Assembly: GCA_027623195.1 (NCBI GenBank)
Contig: JAQBUT010000015.1
Location: forward strand, 1-64,000
DNA length: 64,000 bases
From: Chloroflexota bacterium
GTDB taxonomy: Bacteria > Chloroflexota > Dehalococcoidia > Lucifugimonadales > JADFKI01
Direction: 5' to 3'
The stretch's first letter is position 1; each line of letters begins with the position of its first letter. Of this stretch, positions 3,001-12,000 are shown one piece after another. Made by a program: the position numbers.

Positions 3001-6000
3001 CCCTCGGGTTCCTTTGATGCGCAGCACAATCACATTTAGCGGCGTCTGCACTCAGGCATGGCGTGTCCAGTATTCGTAGAGCCTCCGGCCCATTAGAAGG
3101 CCCTTCCGAGCACCTTTCTGACATCGGCATGCATCTAACGGTTTCAGTAGACCTGAGTGGAGACGGTTACGACCAACCTACGGCGGACTTCCGCACAACG
3201 GAGCGACATGATTAGAGGAGTCCTGGAGCGCTATAAAAGCTATCTCCCCGTGAACGAAAAAACGCCAATGTTCACGCTTGGCGAGGGGGACACCCCTCTT
3301 GTAAGGTCCAGGACCATATCGCAAGAGGTCGGATGCAACGAGTTGTACTTCAAGCTAGAGGGTTGCAACCCCTCCGGCTCTTTCAAAGATCGCGGGATGG
3401 TGCTGGCGGTAGCCAAGGCCATGGAAGAGGGCGGCGAGAGCATCGTCTGCGCCTCTACCGGTAACACCAGCGCATCGGCAGCAGCCTACGGCGCCTACTG
3501 CGGCCTTCAGACCACAGTCTTTGTCCCCAAGAACAATATTGCCAGAGGCAAGTTAGCCCAGGCGATAACCTACGGGGCCCGCATTGTTCTCATCGACGGA
3601 AACTTCGACGACGCACTTAAGATCGTTCGTGAGTTGACTGCGAAGCACCCCATAATCCTCGTAAATTCGCTGAACCCGTACAGAATCCAAGGTCAAAAGA
3701 CTGCCTCATTTGAGATCGTTGAAGACCTGGGAACGGCTCCCGATTACCTTTGTGTCCCTGTGGGGAATGCCGGGAACATCACCGCTTATTGGCAGGGCTT
3801 CGTTGAGGCCCGGCAGATGGAGTGGACGGCCACCCTCCCGAAAATGATGGGCTTCCAGGCCGAAGGCGCTGCTGCCATCGTCAAGGGCCATCCTATTGAG
3901 AAGCCAGAGACTATTGCCTCCGCCATCAGGGTTGGTAATCCCGCCAGTTGGGAAAGCGCCGTTAAGGCCAGGGACGAGTCTAATGGCATGATCGACTCCG
4001 TTACAGACGATGAAATCATGGAAGCCTACCAGATGCTGGCCAGGCAAGAGGGCATATTCTGCGAACCGGCCTCAGCTGCCTCCGTGGCAGGACTGTTAAA
4101 ACTTTCCCGCAACGGCGTGCATCTCAACGACAATAAGATCGTCTGCGTTCTGACCGGGACGGGCCTTAAAGACCCAGACCTTGCCAGTTCCATGGAGCCG
4201 GTTTTTATGGATGAGTACCCCCCACAGCTTGAAGCGGTGGAGCGGGCCTTGGAGTTAGGCTAGTTGATAGACCAGGAAAAGATAAAGAGCGCGGTCTCCT
4301 CGATAATCGAGGCCTTGGGGGACGATCCTACCAGAGAGGGACTGCAAGAAACCCCAAGGCGAGTCGCCGAAATGTACGCGGAATTCTTCTCAGGCCTAGA
4401 GGAAGACCCGGCAGATGTTCTCTCCACAGGATTCGAAGAAGGTCACCAGGAACTGGTGGTTTTGCGAGATATCCCTTTCTTCTCGATATGCGAGCATCAT
4501 TTCCTCCCGTTCTTCGGTACCGCCCACGTTGGGTATATTCCCAGGGGACGTGTAGTAGGTGCTTCGAAGCTTGCCCGCGCAGTGGACATATTGGCGCGGC
4601 GTCCTCAGATCCAAGAGCGCCTCACGGACCAGTTGGTGGAGGCGCTTAATAAGACTCTTGAGCCCGACGGTGTCGCCGCCGTTATCAGCGCAGAGCACAT
4701 GTGCATGTCGTTGAGGGGCGTTAAGAAGCCAGGTAGCAGAATAGTTACGTCGTCAGCCAGGGGCAGGCTCAAAACCCAGGCGGCGGATCGACAGGAATTT
4801 TTTAATTTGCTGAAAGAGATTAATTGATGCCCCTTACCGTTCAGTTGGAGGGGTTCGACAACCTGCAGGCGGAATGGGAGCAGCTATTACCGGAGACGGC
4901 CGCCGATACGATATTTATTACGCCATTGTGGCAAAAGCTCTGGTGGGAGCATTTCGGGCAAGAGGCAAACCTGCATATAGTCTCAGTCAGGCAGGGTCAG
5001 GAGCTGATAGGCATCGCGCCTCTGATGTTAACGGATGGGGTGCTGTCCTTCCTCGGCGACACCGACCTGTTTGATTATCACGACTTCCTGGTGAGAAAAG
5101 GCAACGAGGCCGAGTTCTTTAACGTGCTCTGTGAGCATCTGGTTGAGCTTGATTGGCACACATTTGAGCTCAAGTCCTTGCGGGGGAACTCTATGACTTT
5201 GGCCCATCTCAAGGCGCTGGCAGACCAGAAAGGGTTCCAGACCGAGATCACGGAGGAGGATGTTTCTCCGTTTGCTGCGTTGACGCCAACTTGGGAGGAA
5301 TACCAGGCAGGGTTGCGCAAGAAAGATCGCCACGAGTTGCGCCGGAAGTTGCGGAGACTTGAGGCGGGAGATAACGCTCGTCAGTACTCGTGCGAAGACC
5401 CTGCTACGTTAGCTGAGTACATGCCGGAGTTTTTCCGGCTTATGCGCGCCAGCAGTCATGACAAGGACGACTTCTTGACGGAGGAGCGGGAGCTTTTTTT
5501 CAAGGATATGGCTGTAAGGCTAGCGGATAAGGGCATATTCAAGCTTTTCTTCCTGGAGGTTGACAACATTCGCGTTGCCTCCTGTATCGCCTTTGACTAC
5601 GGCGACGCGTACCTGCTTTATAATAGTGGCTACGATCCTGAGTATTCGTCTCTAAGCGTTGGGCTTCTGAACAAGGCCCTGTGCCTTAAAGAGGCCGTGG
5701 AAAAGGGCAAGAGCACATTTGATTTCCTAAGAGGAACTGAACGGTATAAATATGATCTTGGTGGACAGAATCAGATTGTTTACCAGATGACAATTAAGCG
5801 TTAGGTCCGTTTCGTATAACCCTGAGGGCAGGCGGGCTTGGCTTCGAAAATAGGACCTCATCCAGAATTCTTTTTCAACCCCTGTGCTGGGGTGTCGGTG
5901 TATTCCACGCGATTGGGGCCTCTAATTCCCTGGGGGAAGGCCCTGACCCGGTAAGAATCAGGCGGAGTAATGTATGCGTAGACTGGCGTTGTTGAGCTTC

Positions 6001-9000: not shown

Positions 9001-12000
9001 CCGACTGCAGACAGATTGTAGCAGAGCGAAAGCGACGTGGCTAATAGTGTATTCGATAGCGCAGCGGCTTGTTGATGCGACGCTCAAGGGAGGTGTTCGG
9101 GTTGCCCGCCACACACCGAAGCATTATCATATCTCCATGGCCGTGGTGGACATGCTGGTTTCTAGGGCTGGCCCCATGGCAAGTGGCCAACGGATGTTAG
9201 GTGGGAACGCGTCGTGACAAGTAATGTGGCGCAACTGTCCTGCAGATAATTAATGGAAGGCGTAGCAATAAATGATAGATAGACCCGAAAAGGCTATGGT
9301 GGTTATCCCGCATCCCGACGATGCGGAAGGAGGGTGCGGGGGAACGATAGGGAAGTGGATCAAGGAGGGCACAGAGGTCGTGTTCGTGCTGTGCACCAAC
9401 GGTGACAAGGGCACCAGCGACCCCGAAATGACGTCAGAGCGTTTGGCGGCCATCCGTGAAGTAGAGCAGGCCAATGCAGCAGAGACCCTGGGAGTCAAGG
9501 AAGTGATTTACCTGAGATACCCGGATGGCGCTCTGGAGGACACAACCGAGTTTAGAGGGCAGATAGTCCATGCGGTGCGAAAACATCAGCCGGAAGTTGT
9601 ATTCTGCACTGACCCTCACAGGCGGACGTTCTACCTCCATCGCGATCATCGTATGTCTGGACAGGTGACCTTGGACGCCGTATTTCCCTACGCGAGAGAT
9701 ATTCTGCATTATGCCGAACATAGGGCAGAAGGCCTGGAGCCGCACAAGGTAGGCGATCTTCTCATGTGGGGCACCGAGGCCCCAGACGAGTTTATCGATA
9801 TCACGGACACTATCGACCTGAAAATCGAAGCTCTGAAAAAGCATGTTAGTCAGGTATCCGGCGGCGACCGCGATGTGGCGGACTTTGTTAAGGCCAGGGC
9901 GCAGACTATCGGCCAGCGTGCAGATGTGCCCTACGCCGAGGGATTCCGGCGTATCCAGTTCCGGCGATAGAACGCCTGATACCCGCGATGACGACTGAAT
10001 CGAATTCTCAGGTAGTCTTTTCGGTTCCTGGGATTACCCATGTTCTATATAGAGGCTGGGAATTGGGAATATTCGGCAGGTAGCGTTTGTACGATCTGCA
10101 TGCACATATACTGCCGGGTGTGGACGACGGCCCAGCCTCTATGGACGTTTCCCTGGAAATTGCTCGCGCAGCAGCTAAAAATGGCACCCAGGTGATGCTG
10201 GCGACGCCTCATCGCAAAGACGTTACCGAGGACTGGTCTGTTGACCATATTCGAAGCCTGGTAGATGAACTGAATGCCCTTGTACAGGCGGAGGGGCTGG
10301 ATTTTCGCCTTCTGCTGGGCATGGAGAATCACCTGGATGCCGACCTGCCTGGGGAGGTCTCGGCGGGCCGGGCGCTCCCGATGAATGGCAGCCGCTACAT
10401 ACTGGTGGAGATGCCCTTTTTCGGGAGGCCGGATTTCATAGAGAGTTCCCTGGCAGAAGTGATGGATCTTGGTCTGGTGCCGGTCCTGGCTCATCCCGAA
10501 CGTATCGAGGTATTCCAGCAGGATGTCGGGTTGCTACAGCAGTTCCTGGCGCTTGGCATGCTCAGCCAGATAACCGCCGGTAGCCTGCTAGGACAGTGGG
10601 GCGACGAAGTGAAGGCTTTCACAGTGGAGCTTCTGCATCTGGGGCTGGCCCACATAATTGCGTCGGACACCCACTCGCCCCAAGCACCTAGGCCTCCGGG
10701 ACTCGCAGAAGGTGCCGAGGCTGCGGCGCTGGTGGTAGGCACGGCAAATGCACAAGACATGGTGCTGTCGACGCCTAAGGCCATTATGGAAAACCTATCG
10801 TTTTAATAGCTCAGACAGGTGAGAATGAAACTGGGCCAAATAAAAAAGGACGGGCGAATCCCGTCCTTCCGTGTATCCCAGACCTCGAGTTACCCTAGGT
10901 TAGCGCGCTAACCCGCCTCAGCACTGCGCTTACCCTAGCGATTAGTTCCTGAACGCCAAAGGGTTTGACTAGATAATCGTCCGCACCTAGTTCCAGACCC
11001 TTGATGATGTCGTCTGTGGAGCCGAACACGGTAAGCATGATCACCGGGCACCCGGATATCTCCCGCAGCCGCTCCAGCATCTCCCAGCCGTCCATCTCTG
11101 GCATCTTTACGTCCAGAACTATCAGGTCTGGCAGTGTCAGGTAGAACTGTTCCAGACCGCGAACGCCGTTCTCCGCCAAGTGTATCGTGTACCCTTCGTC
11201 TTCCAACACGCGATGAACGATCTCCCTAATGGAGTCGTCATCTTCGACCAGAAGTACAACAGGCTGTGCTTTTTCTTCTTCCAACTGCCTATAATCCATG
11301 CTTCATACTCGACAGCCACATCATTAAGCCCGAGAAGCGTATTTCGCCATAGCGACAGGCGGATTCTACCACCTCTGTAGCCTAACCTTAAAGGCCTTTT
11401 GAGATACTTACATCAAGGCATTCCTTCAAAAAATAGGGTGGCATCACTTACTGTCTATTCGGAGTTGGCACGATGCCATTTGGCTGTGCCTGGCTTATCC
11501 TGTAAATGACTTTGCCTCAATGCGCCATCGAGGCCCGATAGAATTTTTAGGTAAAACGCCTTCAGGAATCCTAAAGCCCTATGTTTAGCAGATAAACACG
11601 GCGTGCGTGCGGAAAACTGTTTTGGAGCGGTTTCAGGCTAAATTGCGGATATTCATTGGACATAGACCAAGGTGGAGCGTCGCTACAGTCCTGACGTTAA
11701 CCATGCTTGGAATCATTTCGCTGTTCATGAGCATAACCACTCTGACGGAGATTCGTCGGGAAAAGGCGATATTTCGGGTTCATATTGAAGAGATGGGGCT
11801 TCTTTACCTGAATTCCGTAAGTCAGGCATACATATTTTCGAGTGAAGAAGATAGACCCAGTATTGGACAGCTTACTGGTCACACCGGCAGAGGCATGCCA
11901 GAAGTTTCGCATCTAGAGCTGTTTTCTGAGACTGGCGAATCGCTTGGACCTCAGATTCCAATTGGGGGAGATGCCTTATCAAGTGAGAATCGTGCTATAG

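Follow-up and report, generated by a model that had tools for sequence, protein, structure and literature searches.

A Fem-fold protein encoded beside mshA as a probable replacement for the cysteine ligase MshC in Chloroflexota and Actinomycetota

How might a bacterium that carries an MshA-type enzyme produce a mycothiol-type thiol if it has no MshC, the ligase that supplies the cysteine? This question is raised by a cluster on contig JAQBUT010000015.1 of a Chloroflexota genome, in which a gene for a Fem-fold protein lies directly upstream of an mshA-like gene. Mycothiol is regarded as restricted to Actinobacteria, and in published surveys mshA-D appear in no other group (PMC6282198, PMC4255298). 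The whole stretch of DNA analyzed here, 64,000 nucleotides in length, is referred to as the window; it contains the following features, among them the same six cluster ORFs that an earlier note on this DNA had described:

3157-4263, + strand: thrC, a housekeeping gene (in 59 of 80 related loci)
4264-4827, + strand: folE, a housekeeping gene that abuts the fem gene (in 61 of 80 related loci)
4824..5804, + strand: fem-fold tandem GNAT (PF13480), proposed MshC replacement (ORF, domain match, predicted fold)
5974..7197, + strand: MshA-type GT4, proposed GlcNAc-Ins-P synthase (TIGR03449, tree, residues)
7201..7926, + strand: DUF502 membrane protein (domain match; in 54 of 80 related loci)
7986..8915, - strand: MshD-like double GNAT, proposed to N-acetylate the cysteinyl group (best model TIGR03448)
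9272..9970, + strand: BshB1-like PIG-L deacetylase, candidate GlcNAc-Ins deacetylase or conjugate amidase (domain and models)
10087..10806, + strand: CpsB/CapC-type PHP phosphatase (domain match; in 34 of 80 related loci)

The core of this arrangement is the pairing of fem and mshA, which had been noted before and recurs in 77 of the 80 related loci. The same order is found in 21 of 39 Chloroflexota genomes and in 32 of 43 Actinomycetota genomes, in nine of which MshA scores over its curated cut-off. An mshD-like gene lies at most 6 kb away in 57 of the 80 related loci and a PIG-L gene of the cluster type is present in 34; PIG-L homologs directly follow fem-mshA in nine further loci (L186, L187, L188, L190, L192, L473, L475, L536 and L541), and in two (L177 and L183) fem abuts a PIG-L gene without mshA. 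The housekeeping genes thrC and folE probably share a transcript with fem, lie outside the proposed pathway and accompany fem in only one of 20 more distant loci. The PHP phosphatase gene was found beside fem in none of these 20 loci and in none of 15 further ones, and its membership in the pathway is doubtful. Scans for promoters and terminators gave matches at chance level, Rfam had no match in the window, and a look for RNA runs brought up none.

Several genes of a mycothiol-type pathway can be recognized in this genome, albeit that MshA, MshD and the deacetylase of the window all score below their model cut-offs. As the earlier note had it, the GT4 protein fits the MshA model best (391.3 bits, cut-off 462.5; next family 172.9 bits); its score for the BshA model is 132.9 bits (cut-off 273.7). 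In a quick IQ-TREE run without bootstrap, it falls together with actinobacterial MshA on the MshA side of a split, supported at 98, from sucrose-phosphate-synthase-like (SPS-like) paralogs. It also keeps H10, D21, M25, N26, K78, Y110, T134, R152 and the ESF motif, which we take to bind the substrates in MshA. Judged by its sequence, it is an MshA ortholog and would have GlcNAc-Ins-P synthase activity. For the ORF at 7986-8915, MshD is indeed the best model (107.6 bits, cut-off 163.1), a cut-off that is exceeded in one of five actinobacteria with Fem only. The in-cluster deacetylase, formerly described as an MshB-like PIG-L protein, is a PIG-L protein, yet it fits BshB1 best (118.9 bits) and MshB poorly (40.2 bits). 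Two PIG-L proteins encoded elsewhere in the genome are better matches to MshB/Mca (185.5 and 193.6 bits, cut-off 224), and seven PIG-L genes in total are candidates for the deacetylation step.

Likely users of such a thiol are present as well, as previously reported: an S-(hydroxymethyl)mycothiol dehydrogenase over its cut-off (656.7 bits) and two MDMPI genes (two MDMPI_N matches). The inositol-1-phosphate synthase mentioned alongside them is a full-length Ino1-type protein that, at 541 bits, falls short of its cut-off (638); such genes occur in 105 of 121 Chloroflexota, and we discarded Ino1 as a pathway marker for being near-universal. The genome, which is 87% complete, yielded no BshC candidate, in agreement with the earlier note (the control matched in 3 of 14), and no match to GshB.

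The Fem-fold protein itself starts either at TTG 4824 (326 aa, overlapping the folE stop) or at ATG 4827 (325 aa), and matches Acetyltransf_6 (PF13480) with 100.7 bits. Its homologs are publicly named 'CelD/BcsL family acetyltransferase involved in cellulose biosynthesis'. A sequence search against the PDB returned a chance match only, and the clusters that the ESM Atlas gave were all unnamed PF13480 ones. Among longer proteins, a search for fusions to MshA or PIG-L gave two matches, both fused to other domains, which is weak evidence; separately, an 811-aa protein (P0111) matches the Fem profile twice.

Its structure was predicted with a pLDDT of 96.3. With Foldseek, the model matches FemX at E 6e-13 and TM 0.66, which identifies a FemX-type tandem GNAT fold, and with VIA at Z 22.9 (rmsd 3.3, 289 aligned residues). 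FemX, FemA and Sbb17 match at Z 21-23; FemX and Sbb17/Sba18, named as the best folds by the earlier note, are all among the top ones, and the seven highest-ranking VIA matches all belong to the aminoacyl-tRNA transferases (Z 18.2-22.9, rmsd 3.2-3.9), at sequence identities of 9-16% to the solved tRNA-dependent enzymes. Within the family, R169, E171, R174, K175, R177, Y266-G269, Y308 and K309 are invariant, with R169, R174, K175, R177, Y308 and K309 found in 24 of 24 sequences; helix 166-181 is basic, with 8 Lys or Arg in 16 residues. From its position in the motif, rather than from a residue-level superposition, K309 appears to be the counterpart of FemX K305.

These features bear on a first alternative, namely that the Fem protein replaces MshC and yields Cys-GlcN-Ins, with Cys-CoA, a Cys-carrier protein or Cys-AMP as the donor in place of tRNA. 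Other acyl donors may thus serve the family, as three homologs weakly match the BspF model, whose annotation is crotonyl transferase; acyl-CoA tandem GNATs also reach Z 15-17 against the Fem model (maximum 17.4), and a GNAT that depends on a carrier protein is reported (PMC11685415). However, the acyl-CoA enzymes rank below the tRNA-dependent ones, at rmsd values of about 5-6, neither the basic helix nor the Tyr-Lys pair varies, and no gene for an adenylating enzyme or carrier was recognized among the scanned neighbors of fem. We consider a donor other than tRNA unlikely.

The earlier note had held MshC absent from this genome and from the Chloroflexota searched. The first part stands: in this genome (87% complete), the only two CysRS-family matches (311 and 225 bits) are both full-length CysRS. 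The second does not. The cut-off of the MshC model is exceeded in none of 121 Chloroflexota genomes, but 66 of 120 encode a short CysRS paralog, below the model cut-off, that groups with actinobacterial MshC. These paralogs consist of the CysRS catalytic domain without the anticodon domain: they are 383-425 aa long, with 116-155 aa after KMSKS versus 191 in CysRS (29 of 30 fetched loci parsed). In a tree that included 20 of them, a branch supported at 1.0 puts all 20 with MshC, and the one compared with the PDB has MshC as its best match; of 17 scored with NCBIfam alone, 10 fit MshC best and 7 fit CysRS best. About half of the sampled Chloroflexota thus carry an ordinary MshC ortholog. No match to the pathway genes of the window lay within 1.5 kb of any of 29 MshC-like genes, and in 20 Fem-negative genomes mshA had no conserved neighbor. 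By coordinates, the dehydrogenase gene lies beside MshC in genome G105, the only such neighbor seen.

The discovery of these orthologs provides the strongest support for the Fem protein as the replacement of MshC, since the two are distributed in a complementary manner. Among 120 Chloroflexota genomes, 89 have MshA: 33 with Fem only, 49 with MshC only, six with both and one with neither. Among 131 Actinomycetota genomes, 65 have MshA: 38 with Fem only, 22 with MshC only and two with both, and the remaining three have only a weaker Fem match, directly upstream of mshA. No MshC was found in any of the 33 and 38 Fem-only genomes, respectively, and all three proteins are absent from 17 of the 120 Chloroflexota and 56 of the 131 Actinomycetota. 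A cultured Fem-only organism is Salsipaludibacter albus AS10 (L521), which has fem next to mshA and a single gene of the CysRS family. Fem and MshC are therefore nearly mutually exclusive among MshA-bearing genomes of two phyla, which strengthens the central proposal of the earlier note, that Fem stands in for MshC; Fisher values overstate this association, because related genomes are not independent. Fem-only Chloroflexota span 16 families and MshC-only ones 18. The exchange is also recurrent: one family (f37) holds both states, and two supported MshA clades are common to Fem- and MshC-linked MshAs. A Fem match without detected MshA occurs in three of 120 Chloroflexota and seven of 131 Actinomycetota; a repeated search in five of these genomes gave no MshA-level match, and two of them fall outside the Fem clade, with G126 (100% complete) and G071 inside. 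G059 is another genome with Fem and no detected MshA, and family f32 has MshC with no detected MshA. The same counts overturn the idea that the tRNA route is the route of Chloroflexota, because about half of the sampled genomes have an MshC ortholog. Nor is the Fem route limited to this phylum: Fem matches of at least 200 bits are found in 47 of 131 sampled Actinomycetota.

A second alternative accepts GlcN-Ins as the acceptor and has the Fem protein attach another amino acid (Ala, Ser, Gly), which would give a conjugate lacking a thiol, for instance a compatible solute. Characterized Fem-type enzymes do transfer Ala, Gly, Ser or Leu (PMC12945691), Fem and MshC coexist in eight genomes, and the mycothiol-dependent dehydrogenase is absent from most Fem-only genomes (33 of 41 Actinomycetota and 30 of 33 Chloroflexota). 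Yet a different product would not predict the near mutual exclusion with MshC. Moreover, 12 Fem-only genomes have the dehydrogenase above its cut-off; the present genome is one of them and also carries two genes each of the MshB/Mca and MDMPI types. In Actinomycetota, the dehydrogenase is found in 8 of 41 Fem-only versus 1 of 56 pathway-less genomes; in Chloroflexota, the difference is not significant (3 of 33 versus 0 of 17, p 0.54). We regard another amino acid as improbable.

Less probable still, fem and the GT4 gene might belong to a generic module for a glycan, a lipid or an osmolyte, with a sucrose-phosphate-synthase-like GT4 instead of MshA. The best PDB match of the GT4, C. glutamicum MshA (295 bits), is nearly equaled by Tll1590 (277 bits), the PHP gene belongs to the CpsB (capsule) type, the public name of the Fem homologs refers to cellulose, and the entire region is syntenic across the order, housekeeping genes included. 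Against this, the tree and the residues set the GT4 of the window (MN at M25-N26, HT, ESF) apart from the SPS-like paralogs (QN, EPF), MshA exceeds its curated cut-off in 16 Fem-positive, MshC-negative Actinomycetota, 39 of 40 relatives have a single copy of fem, and no polysaccharide export gene was recognized among the scanned neighbors. In the last and least likely alternative, Fem has another role and the true cysteine ligase is the second CysRS of this genome, a protein of 733 aa that ends in a GT2-like part. This fusion, missing from the earlier note, occurs complete or fragmented in 34 of 40 relatives; we rejected it as the ligase on account of its tree position with HIGN-type CysRS rather than MshC, its retained anticodon-binding part and its distribution (full-length matches in only 14 of 120 genomes of the phylum, all 14 with an MshC ortholog, and in 0 of 33 Fem-only genomes).

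We thus favor, with a probability of roughly 0.65, that the Fem protein replaces MshC by moving Cys from Cys-tRNA onto GlcN-Ins. The replacement as such is likely, and, given the replacement, fold and motifs make tRNA the probable donor. The MshA ortholog would join GlcNAc to inositol phosphate, and a phosphatase and a PIG-L deacetylase would convert the product to GlcN-Ins. The Fem-fold protein would then place cysteine on the glucosamine amine, most likely from Cys-tRNA(Cys) charged by ordinary CysRS, with the basic helix 166-181 binding the tRNA and K309 acting like K305 of FemX. Finally, the MshD-like GNAT would add an acetyl group, yielding mycothiol or a close analog; the odds that the product is exactly N-acetylated mycothiol are about even.

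The gene pattern points to an undescribed second route to a mycothiol-type thiol. A Fem- or tRNA-dependent route to mycothiol was not found in a literature search whose coverage excludes subscription journals and bioRxiv supplements, and a review lists no GNAT enzyme that uses Cys-tRNA, its sole mention of Cys-tRNA being the PEARL enzyme TglB (PMC12945691). On balance, we lean towards a widespread Cys-tRNA-dependent Fem-fold family that has been swapped with MshC several times and serves about half or more of the sampled MshA lineages; together with the short MshC orthologs, it would give most Chloroflexota and many deep-branching Actinomycetota a mycothiol-type thiol as their main small thiol. 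If so, mycothiol chemistry would reach SAR202 and other Chloroflexota, a core redox metabolite would be made from charged tRNA, coupling thiol supply to translation, and a function could be assigned to one clade of the CelD/BcsL family, which is large and mis-named. Chloroflexus aurantiacus contains an unidentified thiol (PMC6336425), for which a compound of this type would be a candidate.

Compared with known systems, the proposed pathway resembles that of Actinomycetota (Ino1, MshA, phosphatase, MshB, MshC, MshD), with which it shares the MshA ortholog, the Ino1-type synthase, PIG-L deacetylases, the MshD-like double GNAT and the mycothiol-dependent dehydrogenase; it differs in having no MshC, a fem-fold gene beside mshA and a BshB1-like in-cluster deacetylase. 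With the bacillithiol pathway (BshA, BshB, BshC), it would share a Cys-glucosamine amide core, and its in-cluster deacetylase fits BshB1 best, whereas its GT4 fits BshA poorly, no BshC was found in the genome and an MshD-like acetyltransferase is present. FemABX and MprF aminoacyl-tRNA transferases are alike in fold (Z 18-23), basic helix and catalytic-type Lys, at 9-16% identity, but their acceptor is peptidoglycan or lipid, in place of the soluble pseudo-disaccharide proposed here. Orf11, Sba18 and Sbb17 of streptothricin-type pathways have the tandem-GNAT fold in common with the Fem protein (Sbb17: Z 21.3, rmsd 3.2) at about 14% identity, and Orf11 forms an amide on an amino sugar with Gly from Gly-tRNA (PMC12945691). 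While these enzymes belong to antibiotic clusters, the gene described here is single-copy and housekeeping-like, and the residue that its product is proposed to transfer is Cys instead of the Gly of Orf11.

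The Fem gene, which encodes a FemX-fold protein, lies on contig C49 of the genome G000 (3.0 Mb, 87% complete); among named genomes, G000 is closest to those of Dehalococcoidia and SAR202. On C49, thrC, folE, Fem, GT4 and DUF502 are consecutive on the + strand, and the G+C content of the cluster (52–56%) is similar to that of its flanks. The features of interest are:

4824-5804, + strand: Fem, a PF13480 tandem GNAT
5974-7197, + strand: GT4 glycosyltransferase, the proposed MshA
7986-8915, - strand: MshD-like GNAT
beyond the MshD-like GNAT: a PIG-L gene, then a CpsB-type PHP phosphatase

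The window also carries an MDMPI_N domain gene of the mycothiol-dependent maleylpyruvate isomerase type (22115-22546, -), a SpoIIIAA-like AAA ATPase (13836-15419, -) and a 331-aa protein without NCBIfam match (15516-16511, -).

Fem yields a single match per genome in 39 of the 40 genomes near G000, with identities of 44–82%. Among the best 80 of 135 confirmed Fem loci, mshA directly follows Fem in 77 and, in one more, across a 0.9-kb gap; within 6 kb of Fem, the same loci hold folE in at least 61, thrC in at least 59, an mshD-like gene in at least 57, DUF502 in at least 54, and PIG-L and PHP in at least 34 each, numbers that are lower bounds because of short contigs. This conservation is partly general synteny. 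The tightest pair of the cluster is fem–mshA, which is kept where the remaining genes differ: the two genes are direct neighbours in 21 of 39 Chloroflexota and 32 of 43 Actinomycetota genomes that hold both, and in 47 of the 59 evaluable loci within the first 66 of 80 from an actinobacterial query, mostly from Nitriliruptoria and including one Nitrospinaceae genome. PIG-L sits immediately 3′ of the pair in several lineages and 3′ of fem without mshA in two, and some families of Chloroflexota (several) have a solitary Fem gene, with mshA at another place. In several actinobacterial loci (L472-L475), a single-domain GNAT, possibly an alternative to MshD, comes after fem–mshA(–pigL); in the locus L189, mshA is followed by a HAD hydrolase, possibly a phosphatase.

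A sequence search by itself does not settle the identity of the GT4 (MshA 295 bits versus cyanobacterial Tll1590 277 bits). In a quick tree of 95 sequences, with SH-aLRT support instead of bootstrap, 13 SPS-like and related paralogues form a separate group (SH-aLRT 98) with QN and EPF at the positions of MN and ESF in MshA, while the window GT4 and all tested Fem-linked or MshC-linked Chloroflexota proteins side with 23 actinobacterial MshAs. By this placement, which covers 39 of 89 Chloroflexota MshA calls, the remainder being score-based, the window GT4 is an MshA orthologue. Some Chloroflexota have a second GT4 paralogue of the QN/EPF type (L393-L400), which groups with betaproteobacterial and SPS-like enzymes and whose scores against the MshA model reach 330 bits.

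The earlier note's cluster scores, reproduced on recomputation, and its fem–mshA linkage are confirmed, whereas its absence of MshC from Chloroflexota is not: short MshC orthologues occur in 66 of 120 genomes. None of 121 Chloroflexota genomes passes the TIGR03447 cut-off, a blank that is a cut-off artefact: an Acidimicrobiales MshC likewise falls below it (411 bits), and short CysRS paralogues group with MshC. These paralogues, found in many Chloroflexota genomes with the second CysRS of G000 as query, measure 383–425 aa and have no anticodon domain (from the 29 of 30 loci that could be parsed); the one searched has MshC as its best PDB match, and 20 group with actinobacterial MshC on a tree (branch support 1.0). 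Genomes were counted as positive from 333 bits upwards, 32 being sequence-checked and the others score-based; single 343–345-bit matches in G048 and G083 were counted as ordinary CysRS, confirmed by the tree for G083. The short orthologues (e.g. L143-L172, L464-L466) lie under the NCBIfam cut-off, and many would carry a CysRS annotation; their sequences suggest canonical mycothiol synthesis outside Actinomycetota. In family f32 (e.g. L156, L160, L161, L171, L172), all nine genomes combine an MshC orthologue with no MshA match at E 1e-65, and a divergent MshA or another glycosyltransferase may supply the acceptor there. Elsewhere, a mycothiol-dependent dehydrogenase gene adjoins the MshC orthologue (G105:C37:5813-8319). 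The second CysRS itself (L002:505-2706, G000:C42) was rejected as an MshC: it is a 733-aa, HIGN-type CysRS fused to a GT2-like domain, which 34 of 40 relatives keep in addition to the canonical CysRS (identity 47–88%) and of which 14 of 120 genomes of the phylum have a full-length version.

Fem and MshC are distributed in a complementary manner. In 120 Chloroflexota genomes, each at least 90% complete, we counted Fem at E <1e-60 (42 genomes, four weaker matches being negative) and MshA at E up to 1e-65 (89). The MshA-bearing genomes comprise 33 with Fem only, 49 with MshC only (one, G066, flagged unpublished), six with both and one with neither; among those without MshA, 3 have Fem, 11 MshC (9 from f32) and 17 none. 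In 131 Actinomycetota genomes, with thresholds of at least 200 bits for Fem (47), 360 for MshC (27) and 316 for MshA (65; five genomes with only 246–263-bit matches counted negative), the corresponding numbers are 38, 22, two and three with MshA (33, 22, two and three minus six genomes flagged unpublished), and 7, 3 and 56 without. Each of the three 'neither' genomes has a weaker Fem match directly upstream of mshA. In 16 Fem-positive, MshC-negative Actinomycetota (one unpublished), MshA exceeds its curated cut-off, and Fem is its direct neighbour in 9. While kin are not independent in these counts, the swap recurs: family f37 has genomes of either state, and in the quick MshA tree Fem-type and MshC-type families are united in a second supported clade.

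Ten genomes have a Fem match without detected MshA, a blank confirmed by repeat search in five. MshA-linked Fem proteins fall into a single clade (FastTree support 0.94) that is recognised by two motifs, RHE in the basic helix and YNS; the Fem proteins of G215 and G258 lie outside this clade and have neither motif, and those of G126 and G071, also without detected MshA, fall inside. Together with the eight genomes that retain both ligases, Fem without MshA leaves room for another Fem role.

As to the donor, the predicted Fem model (pLDDT 96.3) matches FemX (E 6e-13), Sbb17 and Sba18. The top seven matches of a wide structural search are FemX, FemA, Sbb17 and MprF-type aminoacyl-tRNA transferases (Z 18.2–22.9), followed by a protein of unknown function and then by acyl-CoA tandem GNATs with higher rmsd. 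Against a tRNA donor, Fem is only 9–16% identical to solved tRNA-dependent enzymes, and its homologues weakly match an acyltransferase model. Invariant in 24 diverse orthologues are R169, E171, R174, K175, R177, K214, Y266-G269, D300, Y308 and K309. One account describes a positively charged tRNA-binding helix and the FemX catalytic residue Lys305, with Phe328/Lys329 in DhpH-C, and reports that Orf11 acylates an amino sugar in a Gly-tRNA-dependent manner (PMC12945691); by motif position, K309 would be the counterpart of these FemX and DhpH-C residues. We infer Cys as the transferred residue from the exchange of Fem with MshC rather than from structure. G000 carries tRNA-Cys and canonical CysRS, and tRNA-Sec besides.

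Among potential users of the thiol, the reported S-(hydroxymethyl)mycothiol dehydrogenase (over cut-off) and two MDMPI genes (two MDMPI_N matches) of G000 were borne out; we also found two MshB/Mca-type genes. The claim that BshC and glutathione synthesis are missing holds for BshC and GshB, neither of which was found in this 87% complete genome. Of 131 Actinomycetota, 22 have the dehydrogenase above its cut-off: 12 of these carry MshC, 8 are Fem-only (one unpublished), 1 has Fem but lacks MshA (unpublished) and 1 belongs to the 56 pathway-less genomes. Chloroflexota seldom have it (7 of 120: 3 Fem-only, 4 MshC, 0 of 17 pathway-less; not significant). Since one of five Fem-only actinobacteria has an MshD above the cut-off and three others have scores of 131–145, N-acetylation of the product is likely for some lineages, but as a general step it is unproven. 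Chloroflexus aurantiacus is listed in PMC6336425 among bacteria with an unidentified thiol.

The central idea, that Fem would replace MshC, is well supported by comparative genomics; to the full mechanism, with Fem as a Cys-tRNA-dependent MshC replacement acting on GlcN-Ins, we assign a probability of roughly 0.65. A literature search, with most subscription papers outside its reach, turned up no account of a Fem-type enzyme in place of MshC. The system of G000 would work like the mycothiol pathway, yet it is not a canonical member because MshC is missing; Fem would be an undescribed enzyme step in a variant of this known pathway.
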